DNA of 64,000 nt, taken from positions 64,976,001 to 65,040,000 of the forward strand of contig JANJGN010000017.1 of assembly GCA_026770705.1 (NCBI GenBank), given 5' to 3'. The translations under genes and the position numbers were made by a program. The notes under the pieces were generated by a model. That model did not search any database. It was not told the origin of the DNA and saw only the letters and a list, made by a program, of their open reading frames with translations. Below, piece by piece: positions 930 through 63,630 of this stretch. Position 1 is the first letter of the stretch. Each line of letters opens with the position of its first letter. Source of the stretch: Isurus oxyrinchus. Its lineage: Eukaryota.

Positions 930-1975
930 GGAGGAGGTGCCAATACCCGGCTGGAAGAGCCTACAGGCTTAGATCCAGCTATCTTGACATTACAGGGTGC
1001 AGTGTAGAAGAAGGAGCTACCTCTCAAGGAAGACAGTAATCTTAATCTTGAGATGATAGGGCCTGCGATCGCATCCAACTGTGTAGTTGGGCATCCAGTG
1101 TCAGTGATGCTGAAAGTGACTGTCGTCCTCAATTTCTATGCCTCAAGTTCCTTCCTGGGTCCTGTTGGTAATCTGTGCGGAGTGTCACAATCCGCAGCAC
1201 ACAGCTGTATAAAGTTTGTGACGGACGCTATCTTAAGAAGGGTCAACACCTTCATACATTTCAAAACAGATGAGAATAGCCAGACAGAACATGCAAGAGG
1301 ATTTGCAGCTATTGCAGCTTCCCAAAGATTCAGGGAGCTATTGATTGCACCCGTGCGCCAAGGTACCTACTGGGGAGACGGGGACCTCGGTGAATCATAA
1401 GGCTTTCCATTCGCTCATGCCCAGCTAGTGTGCGATCACCAACAGTAGATCCTCCTGGTTTGTGCAAAGGTTCCTGAGAGTTGCCATGATTTGTATATTC
1501 CCCATCACTCCCAAATTCCAAGACTTTTCATCCCTGCTGCACACTTGGATGGCTTGCTGGTGGGGGATAAAGGATCTCCTCTGAAAAGTTGGCTGATGAT
1601 GCCAATCAGATATCCAAGAATGCCTGCCGAGGAGAGGTACAAATGAAGCCATGCCTCCGCATGGGCCATAATTGTGAGAGCAATAGGCCTCCTGAAAATG
1701 AGGTTCTGTTGCCTGGACCGGTCTGGAGGATCTCTTCAATATGCACCGGAGCGCATGTCACTCATTGTGGATGTGTGCTGTGCCCCATACAATCTGGCTG
1801 TCTCACAGGGAGATCAGATGAGGGTGAAGAGGGTGATGTGCTTCCACAATCTGTTGAGGAAGATTCCAGCACAGACTGTGAAGACAAACCTGCTCAGCCA
1901 CAGGGTCATGATGATGACCCAGCAATGAGAGCCAGGGAGACCAGGGACGTTTTGATTCAAAGGAGCTTCCAGTGG
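930..1975 (+). pseudogene. Harbinger (HARBI1-like DDE) transposase pseudogene
   Basis: Frameshifted pieces: LKVTVVLNFYASSSF, GAIDCT, ESCHDLYI, GDKGSPL, RAIGLLKMRFCCLDRSGGSLQYAP. Confidence 0.9.
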
Positions 1976-2262
1976 GCCTCCAAAGTCAACACTCCAAATC
2001 ATTGGAAAGATGCAGCTACGTTACTGCTCGGAGCTCATGAAGCTCCCCTGACAGCCTCTTTCTCTTGAGCCTCCTTCTGAAATAAACTATCATTCCCAAT
2101 CACTGTTTAGCTTTAAGTTGAAGGATTCCTATCTTACTGGCACAGAAAGCACAAGAACATGTGACATAAGGTTACATTTTAATACAGGACTGTCTGACAG
2201 CAAAATAAAATATGAGACAAGTAACAATGATAAAGATCCCATCTGTGATAGTTCTTTTGTGT

Positions 2263-12750: not shown

Positions 12751-13086
12751 CAGGGGTGTACTGGTTTTATTCCTGGATTAATAATTCAGGGAGTGAGTTC
12801 AAATCCCACTGTGGCAATTTGTAAATTTGTATTCACTTCAAAATAATTTGAAAATGTTTCAAGAAGCAGTTGGATTGTTGTAAAAACCGAACTGGTTTAA
12901 CCAGTGACCTTTAGGGTCTGATCTTAGGCAGTCTGGCCTTTGTGACTCAGTCCCACACCGATGTGGTTGTCTTTTAACACGCCTCAGAAGTGGCCTGGCA
13001 AGCCACACATTTGTATCAAAGCAGGGGAAGTATGGATGGGCAATAAACACTGGCCTAGCCCACATCCTGGAATGAAAATTTAAAAA
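12751..13086 (+). mobile_element. tRNA-head SINE sharing both ends with the LINE at 48220-51451
   Basis: B-box-like gagttcaaatcc. The body aligns to the LINE 5' head up to gcaagccac..ttgta.caaa, then jumps to the LINE tail gatgggcaataaa..cccacatcc..gaatgaa. Confidence 0.8.
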
Positions 13087-14319
13087 TGGTGAGAATTACT
13101 CACAGGAACCACATCATCAAAATAAAAAGCAGATTGGATTTTGGTTAGCTGTATAAGGATCTACAACACATTATTTGTAACTCCCTTTAGAAAACTATAA
13201 GTTCTCTGCCCTTTCACTGCTCAATTGTTCAGCTGCTTGTCCATAAATCTCTTGCTTTATGGTTCCCTGGTCACCTTATTCAGCACATATAGTTTTGTGT
13301 GGAGATGGGGAACTGCAGTGCTGCAAAATTATAGAGCATTAACTGAAAGCTGAAGGAGAGAATGATTCTTTTGCCTGAATTTTGCTGGGAGCTGAAGGAA
13401 AAAAGCAGATATAGGATACTGTGGGAATAGAATAGCCTACTAGAGAAGCAAGTGGGGAATGTGGAAATGGAAGAGCTGCAATATAGGGATGGAAAATGTT
13501 GCATTTTTACATTGTAGAAGAAGACAACAAAGACATATTATGTGAATAGTAAGTTAGAAGGAAAGTGTTAGATGAAATGTAGATTGACACCAAACAAGGA
13601 TGGTTAAAAATGAACAGAGTAAAAGTGAAATTAACAGAGGGAAATGATGGCTGTGATCCAAAGTACACCTCAATTAGCTGAATGGTCTTTCCTCTTGGTG
13701 TCTATCTGTTCTTGCTGAAGAGAGGTATGAAAATAAAAGAGGATTATAGAAATTGAAAGGAAGAAAAACTGAGCACAAAACACAGAAAGTAATGGGTAAA
13801 TTAGGGCAAAGCAAAGTTACGGGGAGAATTAGTTAAAAGAATAACCTGTTGGACAAATCCTTTAAACACTAAACAACAAATCATTGCATTTCTGTAAGTG
13901 CCTGCAGCAATAGAACAAGACTGCAGAGTGTTTCATGGATTGGATAAATTAAAGTAGACATTTGGTGTTTTTCATAGTGAGAAAGCAAACACATTATGCT
14001 GGTCAAAATTGTTGAGGAAAAAATTGACACACACATCTTTTTTTCTTAATAACCATCAATTAGAACCGCTGTGACTGTGGAGGGTAATTTAACACTTGTA
14101 ATTAGAATCTGTGAGCTGGGCAACATCATTTCAGTCACAAGTGAGAGGCAGTTTTAGAAATCTGTACAAGAATAACCAAAAACAAAATTCATGTCAGCAC
14201 AAAGCTGGGTGTGTGCAGGGTAGAGTTTGAGTAAGTTTGTGATTTTGTTTCCATGATGCGGTCTTAAAGTGCAAAATTGTAATCATTTTTTAATATGAAG
14301 CATTAAATTGAAATACCTC

Positions 14320-25150: not shown

Positions 25151-27851
25151 GCACATCTATTTCAGATGGACCCTGCAAAGGAGAACTTGAGTCAGGTTCT
25201 CACAATCTCCTGCCAGAACTTAAATGTAAGGGTGGTTATAACCACTGAGAAATGATCTGAACAGTTATTTTTTACTATCCATGCAATTTCTCTGGGGTTC
25301 TGCCAACCTCCTGCTATTCTGCAGAAATTCCACCCTCAGCTTCATTGATGGGTAAGTTGCAAGATGAAGTAGCCCAGCCATTTTGAGACATTTTTATCAC
25401 AGGTTTTACATAGTGTGAAGAGAACAAACAAAATTGCAATCACTTATTTTTTTTGCTGTGCACCAAGATCATTCTTTTCTTTCATTAACAATCCTGAAAT
25501 GTTTTGGGGGATTTAGCTCAATGTGTTAAGGAAGCGACCATTAAAAATGACCTGTAGGGGCTAAATTTTGTCTGTTGGAGATAAATGTGAGAAAGGTCTG
25601 CTCCTAACTGAAGTTTCCGATTTGCAAATAAGGTTGTGGGCAGGCAAACATGCAACTCATGTAAATACAATTTTGTTATCGGGAATGTAAAGTTAATTAT
25701 AATGCACAGATCTTCTCCAATAACTAAAGGCCACTTAATTCATTCCATCAACCTTGTAATACTTGTTACAAAATGGACTAATAATGAGTTGGAAAAGCTA
25801 GTTTTATGAATAGACTAACTGCTGGTGTAGAGGGAAAACATGCAGAGTATTGATGGAGAAAGAAGGCTTTCAAATATGCACATGAGGAAACAATGATGCT
25901 GGAATGCCACTTGGATAAGCCAGTGGGCTGATACAGAGAACCTGCTGGAATGTCTGGAAGAAGCAGCACATCTTGAAAAAGGACCACAAAAGTTTTAAAT
26001 ATTATTGTAAATCAATAATACAGGATGTGGAAAAGAGCAGCAGTAGTTAAAAATAACTGTACTGGCAAATAAAATATTAACAAGCATTTAGTAAGTAACT
26101 CAGTAAAACTTTCAATTTTGAGGTTGTAGAAATTACATTAGATATACCTTAATGCTGTGCAGGAGAGAATTACCATGGACCAAATCACCAGCCTTAACCC
26201 CCATGGAATATCTATTTCCCCCAGAGGGGCACACTGTGGGACAGACATTGACCATATAACCAGAAACATCGGAGAGCATGTGAGCAAGGAATAGTTGAGC
26301 TTTTCGGAAGAGATTCTGGGAGGTACTGGAACTGTTGTTTATTCTTCTTGTACGTCCACACCCTGACTATGTCTTGGGGCATGGGACCCAACGCCTTTAC
26401 CATATCAATGGGGGGATTCATGAGAGACACTCTGATTGTGTTTGAGACCGGATTCAGCTGTCGTCAGCTACAAAAAGCAAATATGGTTCACTGCTCATTG
26501 CCTTGTTATCTCCCACTTTGGAACTGTAACATGTGTCACAGAGTTACCTAGTCATGTATTATATATCCTCCCATTGGCCTAAATTCGATTACTCTACCAA
26601 TAATATTTGTTGAATAGTAATTGTTTACTTGTTATTTTTCTATTACACCTGCAAAATGATCAGCCTGATCCAGAAAGAGAAAACTCTTGTTTTTCTTTTT
26701 TCTCTTCATGTAAAATCACTAGGTAATATGCAACAATCACAAGTCATTTGGTATCGCAGTTAAGGATGGGGGTCTTTTGCTGGATATCCCTAATTCAACA
26801 GAATGTTATCATCCAATTTCCCAATTGCACAGCCAAAGAAATCAAGCATTGACCCTTCCTGACAATATTCCTTAAGTATTGAGGGTGGACAATACAAAAG
26901 CATAACACAACTCTTTGTTGGGACATTTGTAGATTTAAGAGGGGAAATCAAAGGTTCATGTTTAGCAAGACCTGTGTCAGCTGAAATCATATCGGAAATT
27001 CCAGCCAGATCCTTCCCCCTGCAACGGGAAACACTGGCCCTGATACTAGAAGCTGAGAATTGAATGTAACTCACCCCGGCACAATCAGATGACAGATTGC
27101 TCACTGTGTATGTTGGCTATCATTTTTTATTAAGCAGTTTCATGCCAAGCACATTTCATTGACAAATTCTAAAGATTCAAGCTGCAGCAGTTCCAAGATA
27201 AATTTCCAGTGGGCTACCCAGAATAATTGCTCCAGTTCAGCTTTGATCAATGATTGATGCGAGTTGGCATGTGGTTGCAGACCTGTTGCTGGAGCATGAA
27301 CCAGTTGTTGCTGTGTGGGATTCTGCAGCACCAGAAATCAAACAGAATTATTGTTACAATGATAAGTCGAGCAGCATAGGTTCAAGACAATGGCGCTACT
27401 GGCTAGGCTACAAGGATTTTATTGAAACATTCAGTAGAGTAAAATAATTATTGATTAATGAATTGAAAGTGTTGCCAGGGTTTGAAAGAAAATTGTAGTA
27501 AGATATATGCCTGGAACATTTAATGATTTGAGAATACAATTGCAGATGCAAAACATACTTAAGTCACTCTAGTTCTGTTTATGCTGTTGTTCCAAATAAA
27601 CTTTGTGTATAACCCTCATGAAGTCAATTTGTCACTCAGTAAACATCAGTCAACCTTCCTTTAATCTGTCCAGTTGATGACTGCAAAGTATTCTCAGTGT
27701 GTCTGATATTGATCAGCAGTGGCATCACTGAACAATCCCAGAGCAGATCATTTATTTAGCTGGGCCTGTTAACTGTGACAGACACCAGATAATGTGTTAC
27801 TTCAACAACAGTTATACCATGTTACCACACAAGAATTTGGAGGTGACACCA

Positions 27852-29300
27852 GACCATAAAAAGTAGAAGCAGAAGTAGGCCATTCGGCCCCTCGAGCCTG
27901 TTCCTCCATCCAAGAAGATCATGGCTGATCTGTTTGTGTTTCGATTTCCACATTCCCATTCACCTCCGATAACTCTTGATTCCCTTGCCTAACAAGAATC
28001 TACCTCTGCCTTAAAAATATTCAGTGAGCCCACCCTCCACTGCCTACGGAGGCAGAGAGTTCCAAAGTCGCGCAACCCTCTGAGAGAAAAAAATTCTCCT
28101 CATCTCTGTCCTAAAAGGGCGACCCCTAATTTTAAAACAGTGCCTCCTACTCTGGCCTCACCCACATCCTTTCGACGTCCATCTTGTCGAGGCCATTCAG
28201 GATCTTATATGCTTCAATCATGTCACCCCTCACTCTTCTAAACTTCAGCAGAGACAAGCCCAGTCTGTCCAACATTTCATCACAAGACAGCCTGCTCATT
28301 CCAGATACCAATCTAGTAAACCTCCTCTGAAGCACCCCCAACTCATTACATCCTTGCTTAAGTAAGGAGACCAAAACTGCACACAGTATTTGCGATGTGG
28401 TCTCACCAATACCCTGTATAACTGAAACATAACATCCAATTCCTCTCATAAGAAAGGAGAGCATTCCATTAACCTTCTTAATTACATGCTGTACTTGCAT
28501 ACTAACTTTTTATTACTCATGTACTAGAACACCTAGATCCCTCTGCACCTCAGAATACTGCACTCATTCCCTATTTAAATAATACTCCGCTTCTTTATCT
28601 GTACTGCCAAAGTGAACAACTTCACACTTTTCCACATTAAACTCCATCTGCCAGATCTTTGCCCGCTCACTCAACCTATCTATTTCCATCTGCAACCTCC
28701 TCATGCCCCCTTCGCAACACACTTTCCTCCCTATCTTTGTGTCATCTGCAAATTTAGCTACCATACCTTTGCTCCCCTCATCTAAGTCATTCATTTAAAT
28801 TGTAAAAAGTTGAGGCCCCAGCACAGACCCCTGTGGAACTCCACTAGTCACATCCTGCCAATCAGAAAATGATTCATTAATTCATACTCTGCTTTCTGCC
28901 AGCCAGCCCGTCTTCTATCCATGCTAATATGTTACCCACTACACCATGAGCTTTTATTTTCCGCAATAATCTTTGATGTGGCACCTCATCAAAGGCCTTC
29001 TCAAAATCCAAGGACAGCACGTCTACAGGCTCCCCTTTATCCACGTCTCATGTTACTCCTTCAAAGAACTCCAATAAATTGGCTAAACATGATTTCCCAT
29101 TCACAAAACCATGCTGACTCTTTCCAATTCCCTTGAGTTTTTCTAAGTGTCTAGCTATAAGCTCTTCAATGATTGATGCTAACACCTTCCCCACGGCAGA
29201 CGTCAAGCTAACTGGCCTAGAGTTTCCTCTGTTCTGCCTCCCCCTCCTCTTGAAGAGAGGAGTTATATTTGCTACTTTCTAACATCTAATGGATTTCCTC
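27852..29300 (-). mobile_element. CR1 LINE (RT to 3' end)
   Basis: MNDLDEGSKGMVAKFADDTKIG...WQMEFNVEKCEVVHFG. QRRFTRL..GM. RRVRGDMIEAYKILNG. Confidence 0.92.
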
Positions 29301-32385: not shown

Positions 32386-33094
32386 GCATGTGAGGGATCA
32401 AACCAGAATGTGTCAGTTTTCCATTGGCCAATTCCCTTGAAGGAGAGGGGAGAGGTGAATCAAGTCTTGAATAAAGAACTTAAAAGAACCTGCTTTTATA
32501 TAGCCTCTTGTCATTGCCTCAGGATATCCAAACTCCTTTGCACGCAGTGGGAGATGATTTTTGAAATGAGGTTACTATTACATTCATGCTGATTTGACTT
32601 TGAGACACATGAGGTGATGGAACAAAAATCCAAAAAGAAACATCCCTCTGTGGCAGTGTTGGTAATCCAAATCCTGCGCCAAGTAGCTCCACAGCTCTTT
32701 ACAGGAATGTTGGTGATTGACCAGCCAGTCTGGTGTAATGGTTGCTGAAAGGCAGAGGAGCCACTGGGAGTTGGGATCTTTCTTACTGTGTTCCAAACAA
32801 GCTGCAGGCCAAGACGCTGCTGGTTAGGATGGTCCAACTGGACAGGCAGCTGGCACTTTATTGGTCGTTTGTGCTGGTAAACTGCACCATTTTAATCCCT
32901 TGGAGATCCTGAAGCCTTAGCACTGACCAGTCTACATCTACTTTTATATAAGTGGGCTGTATCCTTACAGTGATGCAGTGGGTTCTCCATGTCAGGCAAA
33001 CAGGAACTGTACCTTTATAAATTTATCAGGAGTTTGGTTTGAAGTTGTGTAATCATAGTATCCATAAATTAAACATACAGTAAAATACATATAG

Positions 33095-33950
33095 TTAAGC
33101 AAGTGGGAAAAAAATTGGCAGATGGTGTATAATTTGGGAAAATGTGGACTGGTCCACTTTGGCAGGAAGAATAGAAGAGCAATATATTATCTAAATGGAA
33201 AGAGATTGCAGAACTCCAAGGTATAGAGGGATCCGGGTGTCCTGCTACATGAATCACAAAAAAGTTAGTGTGCAGGTACAGCAAGCGATTAGGAAGGCAA
33301 ATGGAATATTGACATTTATTGCAAGGGGAATGGAATATAAAAGTAGGAATGTTTTGCTACAGTTGTACAGGGCATTGGTGAGGCCACACCTAAAGTTCTA
33401 TGTACAGTTTTGGTCTCTTTATTTAAGAAAGGATATAGTTTTATCAGGAGCATTTCAGAAAAGGTTCATTCGAGTAATTCCTGGGATGATGGCACATTAT
33501 CTTATGAGGAAAGGTAGGACAGGCTGAGCCTGTATCCATTGGAGTTTAGAAGCATAAGTGGTGCTTTATTGAAACATGTAAGATCCTGAGGGGACTTGAC
33601 AAGGTGGATGCTGAGAGGATGTTTCCCCTTGTGGGAGAGAACGGAACTCGGAGACACCATTTAAAAATAAAGGGTCTCCGATATAAGACCAAGGTGAGGT
33701 GAAAGTTTTTCTCTCAGAGGGTAATGAGTCTTTGAAACTCTGTTCCCCAGAGAAGTGGAGACGGGGTTATTGAATATTTTTAAGGCAGAGGTGGATAGAT
33801 TCTTGACCAACAAAGGAGTCAAAGGTTATTTGGGGTAAGCGAAATGTTGAGGCCAAAATCAGATCTGCCATGATTTTATTAGATGGTGGAGCAGGCTCGA
33901 GGAGCCAAATGGCTGACTCCTGTTCCTAATTCGTATGTCTGTATGTTCAT
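33095..33950 (+). mobile_element. CR1 LINE 3' part
   Basis: QVQQAIRKANGIL.FIARGMEYKS..VLLQLYRALVRPHL..., followed by a CR1 tail. Confidence 0.92.
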
Positions 33951-37679: not shown

Positions 37680-37842
37680 AGTGCAGTACTATTAGAGGGG
37701 TGCTACCTTTTGCATGGGGCTTCAAATTGAAGTCTACTCTCTCAGGTGGATGATAAAGAGCCCATGGCACCATTTGAAGAAATGCAGGGACATTCTTCTG
37801 GTGTCCTGATGGCATTTATCCCTCAGCCAACATCTAAAACAA

Positions 37843-38068
37843 AAGCAAAAACAAAAGTTGCTGGAAAAACTCAGCAGGTCTGACAGCATCTGTGGAAAGA
37901 AAGACAGAGTTAATGTTTCGAATCCGTATGACTCTTCTTCAGAACCACTCACGGACTCGAAGTGTTAACTCTGTCTTTCTCTCGCTACAGATGCTGTCAG
38001 ACCTGTTGAGTTTTTCCAGCAATTTTTGTTTTTGTTTCAGATTTCCAGCATCAGCAATATTTTGCCTT
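37843..38068. mobile_element. Penelope-derived inverted-repeat element with a hammerhead-like core
   Basis: Inverted arms of ~85 bp (gctggaaaaactcagcaggtctgacagcatct... / ...agatgctgtcagacctgttgagtttttccagc). Minus strand CTGAAGA-A-GAGTC-ATACG-GATTC-GAAAC. Confidence 0.75.
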
Positions 38069-38824
38069 TATCTAAAATAAAAGATCTACATTTGTTTGGG
38101 AGCTTACTGTATGAAAATTGGCTCCTGTCTTTCCTACGTTACAATAATGACCACACTTCAAAAGTGCTTCATTGGTCACAGAGTGCTTTGGGATGTCCTG
38201 AATTTGTGAAATGAAAGCCTTTTTCATTTCACAAGTATCTCAATTTATGAAATGTTTTACAAAAATAAACTTGTGACACATTATATATTTATGATACTCA
38301 AGGAATTTTTTTTGTGCTGATCTATATCAAATTTGGGCAACTCCAGTCCTTTTATTTAAACCTTAAATTGTTCAACCAAGGATTTAGTTATTAACTAGTC
38401 AACCTCTCATTGCTCATAATGAATCAAAATCAAGTGTCATCTTCATGTGAAATGGTAGAGGGTGAGGACCATTGACTCAGGGCTTAGTCATAAATTAGCA
38501 TTCTATAAAGGCAGTCTTAAGCTTTATACTCCTGTTATAAATTCCTATGTCTACATTTACAATAGAACTGCTTATGTTAATGCGTCATGCCATAATTACA
38601 TCACCTCACCATTGGTGACACTGCAGCATCTCTACGAGGGAGAAGATTGAACACCTGGTTGGGGGGGGGTGATGGTTAAAGGATAAAGCTGAATAACTAA
38701 GGATGAAAAAATACATTTTTACCAAATTCATCCCATAAGCTGTGAGTGCAAAATATTTGCAAAACTTAGTTTAATCCTGAAAGATAATTTACATCATTAA
38801 AACACAGATGTCGTGAGGTGTTAA

Positions 38825-40575: not shown

Positions 40576-41419
40576 GAACTGCAGCCTCTGATATCTGATT
40601 CTCAAGTTATGGTTTTTGGTTGAATGCTGACAGAAGTGTTGTTGCTTCATTTTTATGTTAATAGCTTTAATAGAAAATCCAAGTGATAAGAAACTGAAAA
40701 GTTATGGCTGTCCCAGTTCATGCTGTATCAATAATGCAATACAAGATGAGCTTCTAATAATTTTATATTAACCTGTCCATCAAAGTTGTTTACCTTACCT
40801 TTGTATTTAGTGAGAATTTAGTGAGAAATACCAATTGTCCAATATTATCCTACCCTATCCTGTTGCGCCACCTGCTGCCTTAAAATAGCAAGTCGCCTTT
40901 TATCTCAAAATACAGTTAAATTGGAAATAATAATGATAGGATTTAGGTTAACTCATTAATAACCAGCATCCTGTGAAACCCGCTAACAGGAATTCATTGT
41001 TCAAGTACCGAATGTTCAGAGAAGTGCTAAAGCCTGGTACAAAGTGCAAAAAAATGGAGATTTGATCAAATCCATCTTGCTGAGTTGAGAGTGCAAGGTT
41101 CAATATAGCATATTATTTTAGGTTTTAAATATGTTTTTGATTGAACTTTTCAACACTGATTATAATTTCAGCCTGAGAATCATATAGAGTCTGGTTTATT
41201 TAACAATCTAAAGCAAAAGTATTCCCTATGAAGGCTGAGGTAAATGGGCCCAATGGCCTTTCATAACCTTGTGATGATGCCCAATATACTGTCAGATAAT
41301 GTAGGTAAACCATTTGGAAGGAGTCTGCTGCCAGAGGCAGCCTATTCCATTGCAATACGTAGTAGAAATTCAGGCTCTCACAAACCTTGTTACATAAACA
41401 GACTCAAGTTATTCATTAA

Positions 41420-41550
41420 GATGAAAGCAAAATACTGGGGATGCTGGAAATCTGAAACAAAAACAAAATAGCTGGAAAAGCTCAGCAGGTCTGACAGCAT
41501 CTGCGGAAAGGAATACAGTTAACGTTTCGAGTCCGTATGACACTACATCA
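41420..41550. mobile_element. Penelope-derived terminal repeat (single arm)
   Basis: gatgctggaaatctgaaacaaaaacaaaatagctggaaaagctcagcaggtctgacagcatctg..gttaacgtttcgagtccgtatgac. Confidence 0.75.
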
Positions 41551-47064: not shown

Positions 47065-47756
47065 GAGCAGAATTTGCCCTTGGCGAGTGAGCTCGGCGGG
47101 GGGCAGTTGGGAAGCCGCCCGCCGCCTGTGATTGGCACCGGACCGTGATTTCACACTGGTGGGCCAGTTAAAGTCCGCCCAGTGTGAAACTTGAGTGGCA
47201 ATGTTGGGCGCTGCCTGTGCGGTGGGTGTGGGGGAGGGGGAGGAAGATGGCGAGCCAGACGAGTGTGACCTTTGTGCGAGTGCACGCTTCATAATCTCCC
47301 TGAGGCACAGAGCTGCCTTGGGGAGATGAAGAGATATGAAAAATAATAATTTAAAAAATGAAAATATAATGAAACATGTCTCCTCATGTGACTCTGTCAC
47401 ATGAGCAGGGACATGTTTCTAAATCAATTTTAAAACTTTTATTTGTATTTGCTTTTGAAAACCTCATCGTGCCCATGGATGAGGTTTCTAAAAAAAATAC
47501 AAAGGCCACTTGGCCTTTTTACCTGCCCACCAACAGTTAGGTTGGACAGGCAGTGCAAAATTTACTTTAATTGATTACTTAATGGCCTTAACAGGCCTTC
47601 TGATTGTCGGTGGGCACGCTGCAGGCTCCGGCATGCGCCTGGTGACCGAACTATCGCGCAACTGCGCGTTGACGTCAGCATGTTTGGCCAACGCATGTCA
47701 TTTCACGCTAGAGCAGGTTGGGCATGAGCCTGCCTGCCGAGCTAAAATTTCTGCCC
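47065..47756. mobile_element. Harbinger MITE derived from the 56451-60560 family (inverted)
   Basis: TIR gagcagaatttgccc / gctaaaatttctgccc. TSD TAT. Both subterminal regions align to the autonomous element. Confidence 0.9.
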
Positions 47757-48219
47757 TATGTATCAGAGCTTGTGCACCCATTAATTGTATGTTGTAATCT
47801 AATAATTTTGTGCATTCACTTAGTGAGTGGATTGTTTACTTTAACCCTGTTTCTTCAAATTGCTATTCTGCATGGGCAGTTGTTGAAAAAGTGCTAGGTT
47901 CGATTTTAAGGGTTTCCTCCCTTGATAAGCAACACTTATCAAAGTTCAATTAAAACAACTGAGTCTTCATGAACATGTACATTAAATTACTGATGCTAGT
48001 TAAAAACGTTAACAGCCATGGATTGATGGCTGAGGTCTAGCACTGATTGAAAATCATTAGAACTAATAATCGTCTTGAATAAGTTAGACAGCACTGGGAC
48101 AAAACTTGGTTAAAAAAAGTTGTCGTTGGAAATATGCCCATTTCGATTTTTGGATGAACATCAGTTTAGGCATTCTGGATTCTCATCCACACGAGCTGCC
48201 TGCTTTGGCTGTGCCAGAT

Positions 48220-51200
48220 TTTTTTTTATTCATTCATGGGATGTGGGCATTGTTGGCTATGCCAGCATTTATTGCCCATCCCTAGTTTCCCTTGAGAAGG
48301 TGGTGGTGATCTGCCTTCTTGAACCGCTGCAGTCCATGTGGTGTAGGCACCTACAGTACTGTTAGGAAGGGAGTTCCAGGATTTTGACCCAGTGACAGTG
48401 AAGGAACGGTGATACATCTCTACCTTAGGATGATGAGTGACTTGGAGGGGAATTTCCAGGTGGTGGTGTTCCCATCTATCTGCTGCCCTTGTTCTTCTAG
48501 ATGGTAGTGGTCGTGGGTTTGGAGGGAGTTGTCTCAGGAGCCTTGGTGAATTCCTGCAGTGCATCTCGTAGATGGTACACACTGCTGCTACAGTGTGACG
48601 GTGGTGGATGTGGTGCCAATCAAGCGGGCTGCTATGTCCTGGATGGTGTCAAGCTTCTTGAGTGTTATGGGAGCTGCACTCATCCAGTCAAGTGGAGAGT
48701 ATTCCATCACACTCCTGACTTGTGCCTTGTAGATGCTGGACAGACTTTGGGGAGTCAGGGGATGAGTTACTTGTTGCACGATTCCTAGCCTCTGACCTGC
48801 TCTTGTAGCCACAGTATTTATATGGCTTGGCCTGTTCAGCTTCTGGTCAATGGTAACCCCCAGGATGTTGATAGTGGGGGATTCAGTGATGAGCCATTGA
48901 ACATCAAGGGGCAATGGTTGGATTATCTCTTGTTGGAGATGGTCTTTGCCTGACACTTCTGTGGCACGAATGTTACTTGCCACTTATCAGCCCAAGCCTG
49001 GATATTGTCCAGGTCTTGCTGCATTTGGACATGAGATGCTTCAGTATCTGAGGAGTCGCGAATGGCGCTGAACATTGTGCAATCATCAGCGAACATCCCA
49101 ACTTCTGACCTTATGATGGAATGAAGGTCATTGATGAAGCAGCTGAAGATGATTGGGCCAAGGACACTAGCCTGAGGAACTCCTGCAGTGATATCCTGAA
49201 ACTGAGATGGCTGACCTCCAACAATCACAACCAACTTCCTTTGTGCTAGGTAAGACTCCAAGCAGTAGAGTGTTTTCCCCCTGATTCCCATTGACTCAAT
49301 TTTTGCTAGGGCTCCTTGATGCCACACTCGGCCAAACGCTGCCTTGATGTCAAGGGCAGTCACTCTCACTTCACCTCTTGAGTTCAACTCTTTTGTCCAT
49401 GTTTGAACCAAGGCTGTAATGAGGTCAGGAGCTGAGTGGCCCTGGCGGAACCCAAACTGGGCTTCAGTGAGCAGGTTATTGCTAAGCAAGTGCTGCTTGA
49501 TAACACCGTTGATGGCCCCTTCCATTACTTTACTGATGATGGAGCAGACTGATCAGGCGATAATTGGCCCAGTTGGATTTGTCCTGTTGTTTCTGTACAA
49601 GACATACCTGGGCAATTTTTCACGTAGCCGGGTAGATGCCAGCGTTGAAACAGCTTGGTTAGGGGCGCAGCAAGTTCTGGAGCATAAGTCTTCAGTACTA
49701 TTGGCAGAATGTTGTTAGGGCTCATAGCCTTTGCGGTATCCAGTGCCTTCAGCCGTTTCTTGATATTACATGGAGTGAATCGAATTGGCTGAAGACTGGC
49801 ATCTGTGATACTGGGGACCTCTGGAGGAAGTCGAGATGGATCACCCACTCAGCACTTCTGGCTGAAGATTGTAGTAAATGCTTTAGCCATATCTTTTGCA
49901 CTGATATGCTGGACTCCTCCATCATTGCAGATAAGGATATTTGTGGAGGCTCCTCCTCCAGTGAGTTGTTTAATGTCCGCAACCATTCATGAATGGATGT
50001 GGCAGAACTGCAGAGCTTAGATCTGATCTGTTAGTTGTGGGGTCCCTTAGCTCTGCCTAGCACTTGCTGCTTATGCTGTTTGGCACACAAGTAGTATTGT
50101 CTTATAGCTTCACCAGGTTGACACCTCATTTTCAGGTATGCTTGGTGCTGCTCCTTGCATGCCCTCCTGCACTCTTCAGTGAACCAGGGTTGATTCCCTG
50201 GCTCGATGGTAATGGTAGAGTGGGCGATATGCTGGGCCATGAGGTTACAGATTGTGTTCAATTCTACTGCTGCTGATGGCCCACAGCATCATGGATGCCC
50301 AGTCTTGAGTTGCTAGATCTGTTTGAAATCTATCCCATTTAGTGCCACACAACACGATGGAGGGTATCCTTAATGTAAAGGCGGGACTTCGTCTCCACAA
50401 CAACTATGCTGTGGTCACTCCTGCTGATACTGTCATGGACCAATGCATCGGCGACAGGCAGGTTGGTGAGGATGAGGTCAAGTATGTTTTTTACTCTTGT
50501 TGGTTCCCTCACCGCCTGCTGCAGTCTAGCAGCTATGTCATTTAGGAGTTGGCCAGCTCAGTCAGTAGTGGTGCTACCAAGCCACTCTTGGTGATGGAAC
50601 ATTGAAGTTGACCAGCCAGAGAACATTGTGCACCCTTGTCACCCTCAGTGCTTCCTCCAAGTGGTGCTCAACATGGAGGAGCACTGATTCATCAGCTAAG
50701 GGAGGGCAGTACGTGGAAATCAGCAGGAGGTTTCCTTGTTCATGCTTGACCTGATGCCATGAGACTTCATGGGGTCCAGAGTCAATGTTGTGGACTCCCA
50801 GGGCAACTCCCTCCTGACTGTATACCACTGTACCGCCACCTCTACTGGGCCTGTTCTGCCGGTTGGACAGGACAAACCCAGCAGAGATGGCAGTACAGTG
50901 GATGGTGGTGTCTGGGACATTATCTGTAAGGTATGATTCCATGAGGATGACTATGTCAGGCTGTTGCTTGACTAGTCTGTGAGACAGACTGTAAGACTAA
51001 CCCCCAGATATTAGTAAGGAGGACTTTGCAGTGTCGACATGGCTGAGATTCCCGTTGTCATTTTCGGTGCTTAGGTCAGTGCCGGGTGTTCCGTCTGGTT
51101 TCATTCCTTTTTTGTGACTTTGTAGCAGTTTGTTACAACTGAGTGGCTTGCTAGGCCATTTCAGAAGGAATTTAAGAGTCAGTCACATTGGTGTGGATCT

Positions 51201-51451
51201 GGAGTCACATGTAGGACAGACCAGGTAAGGATGGCAGATTTCCTTCCCTAAAGGACATTAGTGAACAAAATGGGTTTTTACAAAAATCGACAATGGTTTC
51301 ATGGTCATCATTAGACTTACTTTCAGATTTTATAATGAATTCAAATTTCACCATCTGCTATGGCAGGATTCAAACCCAGGTCCACAGAGCATTACCCTGG
51401 GTCTCTGGACTATTAGTCCAGCGACAATACCACTACGCCATCGCCTCCCCT
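48220..51451 (-). mobile_element. Near-complete CR1-group LINE (APE endonuclease and RT) with a tRNA-like head
   Basis: EN: NIWGL..QQPDIVILMESYL..SRGGG..YCPP. RT: QFGFRQGHSAPDL..LDIKAAF.RVWH..GVPQASVLGP..MFADD. Poly-A tail. TSD TGCCAGAT at 48212-48219 and 51452-51459. Confidence 0.92.
51366..51440 (-). promoter_or_regulatory. Pol III type-2 promoter-like A and B boxes at the LINE 5' end
   Basis: A box TGGCGTAGTGG (51440-51430). B box GGTTTGAATCC (51376-51366), one mismatch to GGTTCGANTCC. Confidence 0.7.
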
Positions 51452-52053
51452 TGCCAGATAATGCAAGATCAGCTCTGCTCCATAACTTGCTGGCTTTTCC
51501 AGCACATCTCTCATCACATGCCAAGACTACTGAGATACCAGCAGCCAATGAAGAGATTCCTGCTGCCCTGTGTGTGTGTCAGGCATTTTCACAGCATTTT
51601 CGCACCAAGCATGGCAAAGCATAGAGAGGGCACTGATGCCCAGGTGAGCAAAGGACAGGGAGTGTCCATGATTTTTAATTTAAGGTGAACTTCCCCTTCA
51701 AAACCTGTGCCCAATGAGTATTGCGTTTGCTGCAGCGCCATTCAGTGACAACTGCTGGGGTAGGTGTCTATTTTAAATGAACACTGGGGCTCTAATACAC
51801 AAATTATGCACTAGCTGTTTTAAGAGGAATCTGCTGTCTTACACTCTATTATACTTTATACTTCTTTATACTCTATTTATACTTGATTATTTAATGTAAC
51901 ATTTATCAACTGAATTTCCTATCCATGTCACACATAGAGGGAAACCTACTTCTCATCAGAAAATTTCATGCAGCTGATTGTCACATATACAAATTTTCAT
52001 AATAAACAAAAGCACCAATCCTCAAAGTCCTTCCGTGTTGTGCCAGGTACTGA

Positions 52054-52371: not shown

Positions 52372-52477
52372 CTGAAACAAAAACAGAAAGTGCTGGAAAA
52401 ACCCAGCAGGTCTGACAGCATCTGTGGAGAGAAAGGCAGAGTTAACGTTTCGAGCCCGTATGGCTCTTCTTCAGGGC
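52372..52477 (-). ncRNA. Penelope terminal repeat with a minimal hammerhead ribozyme core (52443-52474)
   Basis: Minus strand CUGAAGA-A-GAGCC-AUACG-GGCUC-GAAAC-GUU-AAC. Confidence 0.6.
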
Positions 52478-53981: not shown

Positions 53982-54292
53982 AAAGCAAGAGCAAAACACT
54001 GCAGATGTTGAAAATACTCAGCAGGCCTGTCAGCATCTGTGGAGGGAGAAACAGAGTTAACATTTCAAATCATTGACTCTTTATCAGACCTAGGAGTGTG
54101 GACGGAAGCTCAGGGTCATACTTCCAGATTGAACAAACGTGTTCAAAGTGGTCACTCAATCTGCATTTGGCCTTCTCGGTGTGGAGGAGACCACATTGTG
54201 AGCAATGAGTACCGTATACTAAACTGAAAGAAGTACCTTTAAATGCTGGAAGGCCTGTTTGGGGCCTTGGACAGTGAGAAGGGAGGAGGTAA
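53982..54292 (-). mobile_element. Penelope remnant: GIY-YIG endonuclease fragment plus terminal repeat
   Basis: Minus strand VQGPKQAFQ..TSFSLVYGTHCSQCGLLHTEKAKCRLSDHF..., resembling NLVYCIRCSRCGLLYIGETKRRLGDRF. Abuts the gcagatg..aaatactcagcagg.ctg.cagcatctg repeat. Confidence 0.75.
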
Positions 54293-55904
54293 TCTTGTAA
54301 TTGGACATTTCACGTACAATATCAGATTTTATTCTATGATACATCTACAAAAAAAATATAAAATTCAAACCTCCCACTTCCTTGTTTTCTTCAAAGAGGG
54401 AGAAATTGTGGTGCAGAAGGTGTTTAAAGTTCCCTGCAGGATGGGGGAGGGGTTGATATTCCAGGTTAGATCTATTGCTCATTCAGCTGGGGAACGGGGT
54501 CTGTATCTGTGGGCTTTAATCCATCTCATCTCGGTTCTGATGCTGGCAGTCTGTAATGTCGTTTCTAATCTTATTTCCGACCTATGCAGTTCTGTCCTGT
54601 GTTCTTCTTTACCTCTTTCCAAGCTTTTCTGCCGCCGTGTTGTCATGCTCTTTCATTTTGTATGGGTTTTTATTGAGATGATCTTTTTGTTTCCAGCTTT
54701 TCAGAGGAAAAAAAACCTTTGAGCATCCACCCTTCTCTGAGATAGCCCTTAATTTTTTGCAGCACGAGAAACACTATCTTCTTCCACGCCTTTGTTTTCG
54801 GTAAAGGTTTTACCTATCTTCCAGTTTTCAGATGAAACCTACACACACACATCGTGAGCCAGCACTCTTACTTTACAGATACTGCTGGGTCCCCATTTCT
54901 GAATGCCAGTTTAAAGCCATTATCACCTTTATCGTTGGCCTTTAGAAACAGTTCCTTAGCTAATATAATTTTTTTAAACTGCAAAATATTAACATGTTGG
55001 TGTGAGTTTTCAACTGTATCCATGATTTTGTGGAGGCTTGCAAGTGACCTGACTCACCCGGGGTTGGCGGGGGAAGGGCAGGAGGATGTGGTGGAGCTGG
55101 TTGATAGGCTTAGCTTCCAGTTGGGCAGAGAGCAGGCTGCCAGACCAGGCACCCACCAGGGAGGTTGGGGGGGGTGAGGTGGGGGGGGGGGGGGGGGGGG
55201 GGGGGGTCTCTGATTGGGTAGGACGGGAGGGGGTGGCTGATTAGAGGTGCCCAATTTGGGATGCCAGTGAGCTAGAGGTGGGGGAGTTGGGATGGGGGAG
55301 CGGGTCCAGTACTAGGGAATCAGGTCCCATTATCTGCTGAGTGCAGTGGTTGGAAGCCTCTGGGGGGAATTCTGAGGCCTTGGGGTAAGATCGAAAGCCT
55401 GATGGGGGAGGTTGAAGGTCTCAGGGAGAGGAGGTTGGGGAGGGGAAAGAATTGGAGACCTTAATGAGGGGGGAGGACAGAGGCCTGTAGGCAGGAAGAG
55501 ATTGGAAGGGTCTGGCAATGGCTGATCACGAGGTGGGGAGGTGGTTTGATCAGGCAGCCATGTTGAATTTAGCTGACAGGTGGAAAAGCACTTACCTCCT
55601 GATCCAGCAATTCCTCAGTTAGGCTTAGCTAGCACACGTTCCCTCGAGGCACACAAAACCCAGCTGTCCACAGTTAAATTACAAAGAGTGAATACAAATG
55701 AGACACACAGCCTCAGTGTAATATTTAAAGTGCCAACCCATCCCCTGGGAGCAGTTTGCTGGTCCACCCATCATCCCACCTCCATTAACACTGGAAGTGG
55801 GGGGGTTGAAGGTGGCTAGGGTTTTGGTTTCAGACTTTTAGGACTTCAAACCCTCACCCCTCTGACCCAAACCTGCCTGTTTTTCGAGTTAAAATTCCAC
55901 AGCT

Positions 55905-56262
55905 AATAAAGTACTTCTGAAGTGTAATTACTGTTGTAATGTGGAGAAGCAAAACAGGTAATGGCACAGCAAGATCCCATAAAATATTTTTTTAAAGTAG
56001 TGTCAGCTGGTGGTATAAATTTGGGACAGGACACTGCTAAACTTCCTTGATCTTCTTTGAAATGGTGCCATGGGATCTTCTAGATCCAGGTGAGTGAGCA
56101 GGCAGTTTAAAGGCTCATCCAAAAAATGGCTCCTCAAACAGTGCAGCACTCCCTTAGAACTACACTGCAGCCAATAGTATGGGCTCAAGTCTTTGGACTG
56201 GGCGTGAACCCCAACCTCCTGACTCAGAGATGAAAGTCCTCAAAAGAACCAAGGCTGACGCT
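55905..56262 (-). mobile_element. Deu-domain SINE
   Basis: aagtacttctgaagtgtaattactgttgtaatgtgg...tttgaaatggtgccatgggatctt...tcctgactcagag. Confidence 0.75.
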
Positions 56263-56975
56263 GAACTAGAGGGGTACATTGATATAACCCCAAACATGAC
56301 TGAAGTTGGGAGAATGGAGGATGAAATTTCAACATGCTCTTATTACAGAATCACAGAATGGTTACAGCACAGAGGGAGGCCATCTGTGCCTTTATGCCTG
56401 TGCTGGCTCTCTGAAGGAGCAATTCACTTACCTTCATCCCGGTAGCCCTGGGGCAGAAGTTTTAGCTCGGTGGGCGGGCACGTGCCCGACCTGCTTGAGC
56501 ATTAAATACAGCTCGTTGAAGTCAGCTGAGCGTGCTGGAGTCAACGTGCACTCTCGTGATATTTTGCTGGGCGGGCATGTGATGAAGACGGAGACACACC
56601 CGCCATTAATTAACTGGCCAGTTAAGGCCCTTGAGAGATCAATTGTCTCCGGGTTTACGTGGCCCATGCGATTTTTAGACCATCGCACGGGCAAAATGGG
56701 CAGGCGGGCAAGTCACAATTAGCAAAACCTCATCCACGGGCAGGATAAGAGGGGTCAGTGGCCTTGTCAAAGTGATTAGTGAGGAGTGCAGGATATCACT
56801 TGCTGCTGCTTGCTTCTGTGAACAGGACAGCTGCATCTCGTTTCAGAGCTGCATTCAGAGAACTTAGAGGCTTCAGTTCAGGACTCAGCTGTTGTTTTCC
56901 AGGCCCCCGGAGGATTCCACACCACGTGGGGCCTTCCAGGTGTCAGACAGCCTTTCCTTACCCTGGTAACAGGGA

Positions 56976-58139
56976 TTGTGCTCTCCGCTGGAGGAACCTC
57001 CTCTAAGGAGGAAGAGGGCCAGAAGGGGGAGGAGGCTAGATGTCTCAATTCAGCCTCCAGGGGGGCCACCTGTGGGAGGAGAGATGCAGGCACAAGAGGC
57101 CAAAGCGGAATCCAAGACAGGAAGGGCTGCCGAAGACGCCACTATCCTGCTGCCAGAGTTTACAGGTGGCAAATGCAGCTACCTCAATATGTCTGAGGTG
57201 CAATGCCGATGGAGGCTCCAACTGTCAAGGGAAACAGTGACCTCCACCTGTCAGAGGATCAGCCCTGAGATCAGCTCTGACTGTGTAGGTGTACACCCCA
57301 TGCCAGTGGCTCTGATGGTCACAGTGACCCTAAATTTCTATGCCTCCAGCTCTTTCCCGGGCTCCGTGGGGGATCTGTGTGGAGTCTCGCAGTCAACTGT
57401 CTACAACACTCTGTTCAGGCATGCATTGACTTTCATTCATTACCATACAGATGCGGCCAGCCAGGCAGAGCAAGCCAGAGGCTTCACGGCCATTGTTGGC
57501 TTCCCCTGCATCCAGGGTGCTATAGACTACACGCATGTGGCTATCAAGGCGCCAGCAGGTGAACCCGGTGCCTTCGTCAACAGGAAGGGATTCCACTCCA
57601 TGAACGTGCAGATACTGTGTGACCACAGGATGCAGATTCTACAAGTCTGTGCAAGTCGGTTCCCACAATGCCTACATCCTCATTCACTCCCAGGTGCCGG
57701 GCTCTTCAGTGCTCCAGCCAGACTAGATGAATGGCTGCTGGGTGACAAGGGCTATCCCTTGAAAAGGTGGCTCATGACGTCTCTCTGCCACCCAAGAACA
57801 GAGATGGAGCAGTGGTACAACAGGAGCCATACCTCCACAAGGGCGGCGGTAGAGAGAACCATCGGTCTTCTCAAGATGTGCTTCCGATGCCTGGACCATT
57901 CAGGGGGCGCATTCCAATACCCCCCAGATCATGTGTTAGTGGTTGCATGCTGTGCTCTCCACAATCTGGCACTGGCAAGGAGGGACCCAGTGGAGGAAGA
58001 AGATCTTGATGCAGCTGCACAGGCAACAGATGATGAGTCGAGTAGTGAGTCTGAGAACGAGCACAGTGAGGAGAATGCTGAGGGCATAGACGCTGACCTG
58101 GGTAACCTCCAGGGAGTCAGGACACCCAGGATGCTTTGA
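56976..58139 (+). pseudogene. Harbinger DDE transposase (HARBI1-like), probably inactive
   Basis: IQGAIDYTHVAIKAP..FVNRKGFHSMNVQ..CD. WLLGDKGYPL. TRAAVERTIGLLK..FRCLD. ACCALHN. The second catalytic Asp segment is out of frame and mutated. Confidence 0.92.
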
Positions 58140-58471
58140 TCCAACGCTCCTTCAGCTAGGCTACCAAATAAGAATCACCACCGCATGTCAAGGCTGCAGG
58201 CTCCATACTCAATCCCTGACAGGACCATTTCCTTGATCAGCAACATACACTATGCAATAAAGTTTCAGGAGACACACATTCATCATTACATGATAACCTA
58301 CACTGCACCTACAGAACAAATGAAGCATACAAAGGCCAGTTGCACAAAATAACATCTCATTTACTTGTGAATGTGAAACATTGCAGAATTCAACATTAAC
58401 TGGTGTTTTCCATCACAATATTTAAAAAAGGAAAAGAAAACTGGGGGAACCAAATATCACCCATGTTGTGC

Positions 58472-60270
58472 TTAAGGTACTTTAAGTTTTCCGCTTGCGG
58501 GTGCTACGTCTAAGTGCTTCCCCCTCGCTAGCACCAGCATTGGAGACAGCCTGCTCACTCTGCTGTCCTGTTGGCCTCGATGACCTTGGCGGGCATCCTC
58601 TGGCCTGTGGAGCCTATGCTGACCCGGCCTGGGAGGCGTGGCCAGTGCCACGGCTGGCATCTCCCCAGTTGCTGCAGCCTCATCAGATGTCACGGTCACT
58701 GGCAGAGGGGCGGAGGAGCTACCGTTGTCATCCGAAACGCCCTGAGAGGAGCCCGAAGAGATGACAGGCAGCTCGTGCGCCAATGTCAGGTTGCTCTGGA
58801 CCTCTCTGCTCACCATTGATGGATGGGTACCTAGCTGCCCAATCCATCTCCCACACTGACACTGACCACCTGAGGCCATTGCCTGTGTGTGGGCTTGCAG
58901 GTCCATGTGCATCCTCAAGAACCCCTGATTGAGTCCCTGGAGCAGCCTCTCCATGAGAGTCGCCACTCTCTCCATGGAGGAGGCAGTGCTCATGCTCCAC
59001 AGGGACTCCTCCACAACGGACACCATGGCACACATACCCTCATGTATCTCCGCCAGATCCTCCCACACACCCTGCTGGACTTGCAGCATCTGCTGCCTCA
59101 GGGATGACTCCAGAGGCACATCATCAGCCATTAACTGAGCATTGTCCTGGCTCCCAGCAGTCCTCCAACTGCTGGAGTCTTCGGCGCTCTCTGCCTCCGC
59201 CGGTACCTCAAATGAGTGTGAAGTGCCCTCACCAATGTGCATGATAGACTACATGGCGATGTTATGCCCACCGAGATGCTGGTATCTGTGCTGGTGCCTG
59301 CTTGACAGAGAGGGTGTGATGCTGCTGCGTGGTGAGCATGGTGGTCCTCTTGGGTCAAGAGTGGGTCTTCATGCTCCTCACAGCGAGGGGCTGCTGGTGA
59401 GCCTAAAAGGGAGAAGGACATGTCATTAGTTTAAGTCATGAAGCTGTCACTATGCATGCCAGGCACCCTGATGAGACAGAGATATGCATCATGGTGCCCT
59501 CGTCTTTCGATTATCTATGGGGATTCCAGGTTCAAGGCTCACATCAATATACAGACTACACTGGAATGGTTACAGTAGCTGACATTCTCACCTCAGTGCA
59601 CTGCACACTTACCTTCCTCTGACACCCCAACCTCACTGCGGCTGCTTGGCCGAGGTGCATGGCGTCTCTCCAGCTCCAGGGCCTCCTGCTCGTACTGCAT
59701 GAGGATGAGGAGGTACGGGGGGTGGGGGACATTGATATGGGATGGTTTCTCCTGAAAGAACAGAGGAGCATTGATTAGTCCCCTCTCTATCTGTAGCGTA
59801 ATTGTAGCCTGGCCAACCCCACCTGAGGAATACCTTGCAGGGCTCAGCTCATTCATGACCCTGGAGCCATAAAGCACTCAGTTCAAGCAGCCAGGGCTCA
59901 CCCCCTTAGCCAGATCCTGCCTCATTGACATTTGTCACTCACACTCTAACACCTCTGAGGTCCACAGGGGGATGGGCAGCTCGTACAAAGTGACCCCTGC
60001 CAACATGGTACTTACCCTTCCTGATCGCAGGAGATGGTTAAAGTACTTCTGGCACTGGACCCATGTGCACCTCACCATGTCGTGGCTGCTGACCCTGGAA
60101 GCCACCTCCTCCCAGGCCTTTTTGGTGAGGTGGGGAGGCTCCCTCCTCCCGTCCCTGGGGACGTGTTTCTCTCCTGACTGCCACCTCCTCCAGGAGGGCA
60201 TTGAGGCATTCATCTGAGAAATGCAGGGCCGACTGCCCCACCAGCCTGTCCTCCTGCCTGCCACGTTCAC
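58472..60270 (-). pseudogene. Harbinger Myb/SANT-like protein gene, 3 exons (~60270-60016, 59751-59613, 59402-58472)
   Basis: FSDECLNALLEEV..KKAWEEVASRVSS..RCTWVQCQKYFNHLLRSGR|gtaagt. tttcag|EK..EE|gtaagt. ttttag|exon 3 homologous to 2263-3186. Confidence 0.85.
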
Positions 60271-61671: not shown

Positions 61672-61911
61672 GATGATGAGAAAATCCTGTGGAACACAAC
61701 AAATTCCCCTTACAACTGCTTGATTCATAATCCTGCTGTAGGATGCTCCACGTCAGGAGTACCAGCTTGTAAATTCTACTCCATAATGCCTAGGGTGGCT
61801 ATAAAAGACCTCATAGCACTATTTCATAGAAGAGGAGGGTAATTATTCACAGAGTCCTAAACAATATCGCTAAAACAGATTATCACATTGCTCATTGTGA
61901 GAGCTTTCTTT

Positions 61912-63408
61912 GTGATGGATACTATAAAAGCTATGGGCCCTGACAAAAGCTAGGCAATAATACTTTTGCTCCAGAACTTGCCGCGCTCCTAGCCAAGCTG
62001 TTCCAGTACAGCTACAACACTAGCATCTACTGGACAATGTGGAAAATTGCCCAGGTATATCCTGTACACAAAAAACAGGACAAATCCAACCTGGCCACTT
62101 ACCACCCCATCAGCCTACTTTTGATCATTAGGAAAGTGATAGAAAGAGTCAGCAACAGTGCTATCAAGTGGCACTTAGACAGCAATAGCCTGTTCACCGA
62201 TGCTCAGTTTGGGCTCTGCCAGGACAACTAAGCTCCTGACCTCCTTACAACCTTGATCCAAACATGGATGAAAGAGCTGAACCTAAGAGGTGAGTTGAGA
62301 ATGACTGCCCTTGTCATCAAGGCAAGATTTGTGTATGATATCAAGCAGCCCTAGCAAAATTGACGTCAATGGAAATCAGGGAAAACTCTCCACTGATTGG
62401 AGTCATGCCTAGCACAAAGGAAGATGGAGGTCAATCATTTTAGTTGCAGGACATCACTGCAGGAGTTCCTCAGGATAGTATCCTTAGCCCAACCATCTTC
62501 AGCTGCTTCATCAATGACCTTCTCTCCATCATAAGGTCAGGATTTGGGATGTTTGCTGATGAGTGCACAATGTTCAGCACCATTTGCAACTCCTCAGATA
62601 CTGAAGCAGTCCATATCCAAATGTAACAAGACCTGGTCAACGTTCTAGCTTGGGTTGATAAGTGGCAAGTAACAATTGCACCACACAAGTGACAGGCAAT
62701 GACCATATCCAACAGGAGAGAATCTAACCATATCCTCTTGACATTCAATGGCATTCCATCGCTGAATACCTCAGTATAAACAGCATGGGGTTACCATTGC
62801 CCAGAAACTGAATGAGACCAGCCATATAAATATTGTGGCTACAAGCAGGTCAGAGGCTGGGAATTCTGTGGAGAGTAACACTTGCCTCCTTGAAGCCTGT
62901 CCACCATCTACAAGGCACAAGTCAGGAGTGTGATGGAATTCTTTCCCCTTACCTGAACAAGTGCAGCTCCCACAATACTCAAGAAACTCGATACTATGCA
63001 GTGCAAAGCAGCCCGCTTGATCGGCACCCCATCCACTATCGATGCACAGTGTCAGCAGTGTGTACCATCTACAAGATGCACTGCAACAACTCACCAAAGC
63101 TCCTTCAACAGCACTTTCCAAACCCACAATCTCTACCATTTAGTAGGACAAGGGCAGCAGATGCTTGGAAACACCACTACCTGCAAGTTCCCCTCCAAGC
63201 CCCACACCACCTTGGCCTGGAACAATATCACCGTTTCTTCACAGTCACTGGGTCAAAATCTTGAAGCTCCCTCCCTAACAGCATTGTGAGTGTAATTATG
63301 CCACATGGACTGCAACAGTTCAAGAAGGTGGCTCATCCACACCTTCTCAAGGGCAATTAGGGATGGGCCTTTCCCATGGCACCCACATCCCATGAAAGAA
63401 TTTTTAAA
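61912..63408 (+). mobile_element. 5'-truncated copy of the 48220-51451 LINE family, inserted in a Deu-domain SINE
   Basis: MWKIAQVYPVHKKQDKSN..YHPISLL. GVPQDSILSPTIFSCFINDL..MFADE. SINE halves at ~61790-61910 and 63409-63530. Confidence 0.9.
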
Positions 63409-63630
63409 AATTAGCTGTCACATTTCTCACATTACAGTATTGACTACACTTCAAAAATACTTTCTTGACTGTAAAGTGTTTTGGGAACATCCTGAGGCTT
63501 GAAAGGCGCTGTATAAATATAGGTAGTCTTTGTTGAAGAATAACATAATGATGCAGCTTTGCAAACCTCCATTTGGTAATGAGAGAAGCGGGAAATAACT
63601 CACCATGTTGAGTCACCAATTAAAAAATGA

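Follow-up and report, generated by a model that had tools for sequence, protein, structure and literature searches.

A tRNA-type head fused to the APE-RT reading frame of the Zenon LINE family in sharks and rays

Coding LINEs are generally regarded as products of Pol II and non-coding SINEs as products of Pol III, whose RNAs are held to be too short, and uncapped, to code (Kojima 2018, PMC5786205; Kojima 2024; both in the sections available to us). In those sections, SINEs are described as unable to encode protein (Kojima 2018), and weak Pol III processivity is given as restricting such RNAs to about 0.1-1.3 kb (Kojima 2024). A locus of Isurus oxyrinchus raises the question of whether one element can carry both a Pol III-type head and a LINE reading frame. 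It lies in a 64,000-nt stretch of contig JANJGN010000017.1, hereafter the window, in which a reading of the sequence alone (the sequence-only reading) had placed a tRNA-like head, a SINE-like body, and an APE-RT coding region inside a single target-site duplication (TSD).

We found a decayed full-length retroposon of 3,232 nt on the minus strand, running from 51451 to 48220 between two copies of the 8-bp TSD TGCCAGAT, located at 51452-51459 on the 5' side and 48212-48219 on the 3' side. This 8-mer occurs seven times in the window when both strands are counted, and the rough probability of a match at both element boundaries by chance is ~0.001. In the public run X1, depth was about 16-40 in the unique flanks versus >2.8e5 in all bins from 48139 to 51518 (contig depth, which is not equivalent to copy number), and unique contigs of this run align to both flanks with zero differences. 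The edges of the repeat thus coincide with the TSD, and the boundaries are real. The proposal that a single TSD pair surrounds the whole 3.2 kb is therefore well founded. Since depth is high in every bin of the element, all of its parts are highly repeated, including the piece between the SINE-type body and the endonuclease (50999-51128), which was deeply covered in all four runs (2.8e5 in X1 versus ~20 in the flanks). A second RT in the window is CR1-like and only 36% identical to that of the element.

The A box and B box that had been placed at the start of the minus-strand element were located there. The A box, TGGCGTAGTGG (51430-51440), lies 11 nt from the 5' end and agrees at 11/11 positions with the consensus TRGCNNARYGG; the B box, GGTTTGAATCC (51366-51376), follows at a distance of 53 nt and has one mismatch, the canonical C being absent in this copy. 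This is the only such pair of boxes in the window, compared to 0.015 expected per shuffled window. ARAGORN and Rfam gave no tRNA match on the element, so "tRNA-like" refers here to the A and B boxes only, and the predicted fold of the head is not a cloverleaf. Folding gave no structural support for either part (z=-1.75 for the head and -0.12 for the body, whose fold is not unusual), and the Rfam scan of the element returned no IRES or ribozyme match. The body (51129-51365, minus strand) is common to a short SINE in the window and conserved across sharks and rays; it was present as proposed but is ~240 nt rather than ~350 nt long, since the SINE-shared part stops at ~51129-51137. It is followed by a non-coding A-rich linker (51105-51128), which varies in length among the species consensuses by eye and is possibly a remnant of an old SINE A-tail. 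Two T-runs interrupt the body of this copy, at 51286 and 51270, and are missing from the published consensuses over the part compared. Together with the B box that lacks its canonical C, they suggest that the promoter of this particular copy is probably dead.

Downstream of the linker, we identified a broken single ORF for an APE endonuclease and a reverse transcriptase (48282-51027, minus strand, with the 3' end of the frame inferred). The first endonuclease motif, KVLLTNIWGL, starts at 51027, the linker and ~75 bases lying between it and the body. The RT piece matched the RVT_1 profile with E=3.9e-27, the endonuclease matches in Pfam were weak (E 0.01-0.05), and seven tblastn pieces in three frames together span residues 40-939 of a 962-aa APE+RT protein. 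The endonuclease, RT, and poly-A of the sequence-only reading are thus all present, but the ORF is no longer intact. Its statement that there is no room for an ORF1 also fits our data, as ~425 nt separate the 5' end of the element from the APE motif and the longest ATG ORF within them is 49 aa. Ahead of the endonuclease, no in-frame AUG was found in this copy or, by eye, in the available stingray consensus. The ATG of a short 35-aa ORF (MKPDG..., 50997-51104, minus strand) sits right after the linker and is kept in 6/7 consensuses; relative to the endonuclease, it is shifted by one base both in this copy and in the consensus of the ray. In SquAca_Zenon-2, a shortened, deletion-type dogfish consensus, the same ATG appears by eye, in the part examined, to be in frame with the endonuclease.

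The element ends in a 3' tail with a GGATG/CATCC stem (48228-48292, minus strand) and a poly-A tail of 8 A (48220-48227). An AATAAA at 48273, ~40 nt ahead of the tail, might serve as a signal for Pol II, and 0/9 pairs showed compensatory changes in an alignment of the tail from three copies. The same tail is found in an old short SINE on the plus strand (12755-13087), where head and body (197/312 columns) are joined directly to the 3' tail (53/75 columns); the tail of the SINE aligns to the 3' end of the family to which the element belongs, Zenon. The short form was also present in public contigs: 13 from run X1 and 11 from X5 carry a 51137/48284 joint, and other junction variants of it occurred in X15. 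This variety of junctions suggests that the coding middle was lost repeatedly, as for the Persaeus elements discussed below. A size of 100-700 nt and absence of coding capacity describe the 12755-13087 form only and not the 3.2-kb element with its APE-RT frame. A second copy of the LINE family, truncated at its 5' side (61916-63410, plus strand), is 78% identical and has an A-rich end.

The element is a member of the elasmobranch Zenon LINE family of the CR1 group, which is already catalogued (Stuart et al. 2026, PMC13343379). The available part of that paper states that elasmobranch Zenon was previously not in any repeat database and that ORF1 is absent from, and poly-A present in, all Zenon elements; the missing ORF1, which the sequence-only reading considered unusual, is thus a clade-wide trait. 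Our element likewise lacks ORF1, has a single ORF with APE and RT, and ends in poly-A rather than a microsatellite (8 A before the TSD, with an A-rich end in the second copy). We compared by eye the first 400 characters of the ten Zenon consensuses that Stuart et al. 2026 give in Supplementary Table 2. The consensus of the white shark, CarCar_Zenon-1, starts where the TSD ends, is near-identical to this copy over the 5' 400 nt, and has the same lack of ORF1 and the same poly-A (3,288 characters versus 3,232 nt). We noted no sequence difference between elasmobranch Zenon and the element over the part compared; what separates the two descriptions is that the account of Stuart et al., as available, does not describe the head.

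The head is not peculiar to this locus. Together with the same body and the same ORF start, it was found in 7/7 shark and ray Zenon consensuses in the table as available (CarCar, RhiTyp, ScyCan, SquAca-1/2/3, and HypSab; five species, 2.9-3.3 kb, with cells of 2,886-3,314 characters). Species names beyond white shark are our own presumed expansions of the consensus abbreviations. By eye, the A box is the same or similar at the start of all seven, and the B box reads GGTTCGAATCC in three and GAGTTCAAATCC in three and is one base short in the stingray consensus. The spacer between the boxes varies in length and sequence among species while the boxes themselves are kept, and full-length consensuses begin at a fixed short distance 5' of the A box. 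Counts of three body motifs in the readable supplement were 7, 7, and 6, in keeping with the number of headed families. On the other hand, the head was absent by eye from the first 400 nt of 3/3 hagfish and coelacanth consensuses. Because all seven elasmobranch consensuses share the junction, the head is not a chance neighbour of the LINE, and the proposal that head and ORF moved as one unit, which a junction unique to this locus would have undercut, holds across the family. Head and LINE almost certainly form one mobile unit.

Independently of the consensuses, residues derived from the body were joined to the endonuclease in 2/75 proteins tested, both of them whale shark gene models (P0015 and P0004), which can be spliced and show linkage at a locus only; two further upstream matches (P0016 and P0055) were weak (E 0.006 and 0.02) and were discounted. 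A 20-nt body motif had one match in metagenome contigs, none in prokaryote genomes, and two in viral contigs, and none of the three loci, of which two are one contig, resembles the element beyond the motif, so they were rejected as chance matches. RT-based locus searches in prokaryote and viral contigs returned no relative, and a protein search with the junction-spanning frame returned no candidate. The terms "tRNA," "promoter," and "Pol III" had no matches in the main texts of Stuart et al. 2026 and its preprint, nor did "tRNA" in the journal supplement. In the part of the whale shark preprint available, Zenon is named once and no structure is given. The literature search, whose scope lay outside Repbase, Dfam, and most subscription papers, yielded no description of a tRNA head on shark Zenon. 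The fusion is real and family-wide and, as far as the searched literature goes, unremarked; the Zenon family, its lack of ORF1, and its poly-A are known from the sources as available, and the tRNA-type head is what those sources leave unremarked.

Several known systems resemble the element in part, according to the portions of the literature at hand. SINEs of tRNA origin (SINE2), shark SacSINE1 and HE1 among them, likewise combine an A/B-box head, a conserved body, and a LINE-type 3' tail (Luchetti 2017, PMC5499810; Ohshima 2013, PMC3747384), and the 5' end of our element, with its internal A box and its B box with one mismatch, follows this plan. However, the element is ~7 times longer than a SINE2 and is protein-coding. 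SacSINE1 reportedly carries a Deu domain and an L2-type tail, and HE1 a V domain with HER1 as its partner (PMC5499810, PMC3747384); the tail of the element is the Zenon 3' end, and we give its body no domain name. A parallel for the short form is lepidopteran Zenon, which yields Persaeus, also a short form that keeps both ends (PMC6740152). Persaeus is described as having no tRNA homology and no Pol III promoter, whereas the 5' end of the shark family is a tRNA-type head, so the shark deletion product is a true SINE, unlike Persaeus. Within the accessible text of Kojima 2018 (PMC5786205), RTE-1_DAn and related elements are mentioned in one sentence as LINEs with tRNA-like sequence, with neither position nor function given; bipartite RTE/Vingi SINEs are built from the 5' and 3' parts of LINEs of a clade other than Zenon; and Bov-tA-type SINEs had their tRNA head joined to the short element, no such head being present on the autonomous LINE.

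Our main reading, to which we assign a probability of roughly 0.6, is that Pol III transcribes the Zenon copies in which an A/B-box head is fused to the APE-RT frame, and that translation of their RNA likely begins at something other than a normal AUG. A Pol III origin of the coding RNA is likely, judging from signals in the DNA. On the coding strand of the LINE part, we found 0 T4 runs in 2,900 nt compared to 5.0 expected (P=0.004) and 9 TTT compared to 29.4 expected; runs of A, C, and G were much less depleted, with AAA mildly low (52 versus 71.7). The T4 deficit was not significant when dinucleotides or trinucleotides were preserved (P=0.09 and 0.47), nulls that themselves take up the TT deficit. 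As a control, three CR1 fragments from the window held 23 T4 runs versus 11.6 expected in 2,909 nt, these fragments being older and T-richer than the element. The second Zenon copy shows no deficit (3 versus 3.3 expected), and its three internal runs fall where the first copy has none. The internal T4+ terminators that the sequence-only reading had asked about are thus missing from the LINE part, while the body of this copy holds the two T-runs noted above; by eye, no T4 was seen in the first 400 nt of the seven headed consensuses as available. Two runs of presumed RNA cover the element, but their contigs carry no information on start, strand, or polymerase and were set aside as evidence for transcription; loose ends among the contigs listed leave room for a minority with another 5' end.

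The strongest competing explanation, which we regard as somewhat unlikely, accepts the family-wide fusion but has Pol II make the full-length RNA, whether it starts at a promoter within head or body or reads through from host introns; the A and B boxes would be a relic or an aid through TFIIIC, and the Pol III promoter would serve only the short SINE. Translation normally needs a cap, which favors Pol II, as do the AATAAA ahead of the tail and a T4 deficit that depends on the null model and is missing in the second copy. In the parts available, both Kojima papers count LINEs among the products of Pol II, and 39% of Zenon-like sequence in the whale shark is placed in introns by the preprint on that species. 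However, the consensuses compared retain both boxes in sharks and rays despite a changing spacer, their start at a fixed short distance before the A box resembles that of Pol III type-2 transcripts, and T-runs are specifically scarce in the best-preserved copy. These features argue for Pol III.

If Pol III is the polymerase, TFIIIC would bind the boxes and transcription would start ~10 nt before the A box, so each full-length copy would carry its own promoter. Pol III would be able to read through 3.2 kb since the coding strand avoids T4, and at this locus transcription would continue for ~100 nt beyond the tail, to the first T-run of the flank. Translation of the uncapped RNA would then begin at a non-AUG codon close to the A-rich linker, or at the conserved out-of-frame AUG followed by a -1 shift. 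R2 and other LINEs that lack ORF1 and have 5' ribozymes also have uncapped RNA that is translated without a normal AUG. R2-type LINEs share the single ORF with our element, but obtain their RNAs by cleavage of Pol I or Pol II co-transcripts, whereas the element has no ribozyme match. Zenon RNA might use a non-AUG start or a frameshift, and this is the weakest step of the model because the body has no special fold or Rfam match. The protein would bind the 3' stem-loop, and a new copy would be inserted by target-primed reverse transcription. Loss of the coding middle would leave ready-made SINEs that retain promoter and tail.

Alternatively, the headed 3.2-kb element could be a long non-autonomous passenger that is made by Pol III but not translated, with a rarer head-less or otherwise-headed Zenon providing the protein in trans. 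The lack of an in-frame AUG described above is consistent with this, as is the small number of intact ORFs: the six readable entries of Table 3 of Stuart et al. give 0/2313, 1/1419, 3/612, 1/294, 0/396, and 0/59, where we take the denominators as near-full-length copies per the Methods as available. Since intact ORFs are rare, the 5' reading frame of the active master is uncertain. However, none of the seven elasmobranch consensuses has another 5' end over the part compared, and a frame that can be aligned over nearly the whole APE+RT protein is not expected to be kept across sharks and rays in a passenger, which makes this explanation improbable. An accident confined to this locus, whether a U6/L1-type template-switch chimera, which also gives one TSD around both parts, or a SINE beside a truncated LINE, would suit the fact that no single contig among those listed bridges the junction, but it is refuted by the same junction in all seven consensuses available from five species and in the two whale shark gene models, unless the consensuses were mis-extended alike in all five genomes.

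Returning to the headed, Pol III-transcribed LINE, the most likely source of the head is a SINE, acquired in an ancestor of the elasmobranchs ahead of the shark-ray split, because hagfish, coelacanth, and moth Zenon lack it. The LINE likely captured a SINE head, but the present short SINEs may have arisen from the LINE by deletion. Stuart et al. 2026 (PMC13343379) discuss horizontal transfer for the clade, and the age of the head is therefore not fixed. We propose more tentatively that elasmobranch Zenon could be an autonomous LINE that is Pol III-driven end to end and cap-independent, in which the body would serve as the entry point for translation, the design would pre-date the shark-ray split, and SINEs would have been spawned repeatedly.

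By its makeup, the element is not a SINE, though probably SINE-like in how its promoter would work. A LINE whose long copies number in the hundreds to thousands in shark and ray genomes and whose tRNA-type head is fixed offers a direct test of the rule that divides Pol II from Pol III elements, and bears on two questions, the role of conserved SINE bodies and the origin of SINEs. Repeat annotation of shark and ray genomes will divide this one element into two. If the head does function as a Pol III promoter, Zenon would be a natural case of a 3.2-kb Pol III mRNA that has a translation route of its own; if it does not, Zenon would still be a LINE with a SINE as its 5' end, kept across a vertebrate subclass. 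Should the Pol III-driven, cap-independent, and SINE-spawning reading be true, the boundary between SINEs and LINEs would be erased in this family.

Besides Zenon, the window holds 3′ fragments of another LINE (n = 3; 8464-9477, 27850-28883 and 33083-33941), which share 68-72% identity among themselves and whose RT is 36% identical to that of Zenon. We took these fragments to be CR1-like and used them as the controls for T-run counts; sense-strand T4 runs are abundant in them. The window also carries two diverged copies of a DNA transposon (923-3112 and 57122-59328; 63-73% identity), which is likely of the Harbinger type: a 389-aa plus-strand frame (56970-58136) matches DDE_Tnp_4 (E=5e-25), and the minus strand carries another frame. 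Other repeats comprise a short, partly palindromic family of ~100 nt (37836-38076, 41416-41550, 52372-52474 and 53982-54088; 77-89% identity) and a ~290-nt repeat in two copies (8037-8323 and 47349-47622; 72% identity), one of which lies a short way downstream of the main Zenon element.

Sequence comparison in the window revealed that the truncated Zenon copy sits inside another repeat on the plus strand, splitting it in two (61780-61915 and 63409-63540), and the 3′ part of this host repeat is found again at 38130-38193 and 55899-55948. The host repeat looks like a SINE of the SacSINE1 type whose tail is L2-type, which suggests that it is a different SINE from the Zenon-head SINE.

Four predicted proteins (P0001, P0002, P0025 and P0042, the first being a whale shark gene model) each consist of an unrelated host protein with a spliced-in segment of the Zenon endonuclease frame, and these segments are probably gene-prediction artefacts. 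In some contigs assembled from public sequencing runs, the SINE body is followed by alternative tails or junction sequences: run X16 contigs have a different sequence after the body from 51135, while run X15 contigs bring together positions 48277/51194 and 48250/51135. The Zenon-type head is therefore common to several short families.
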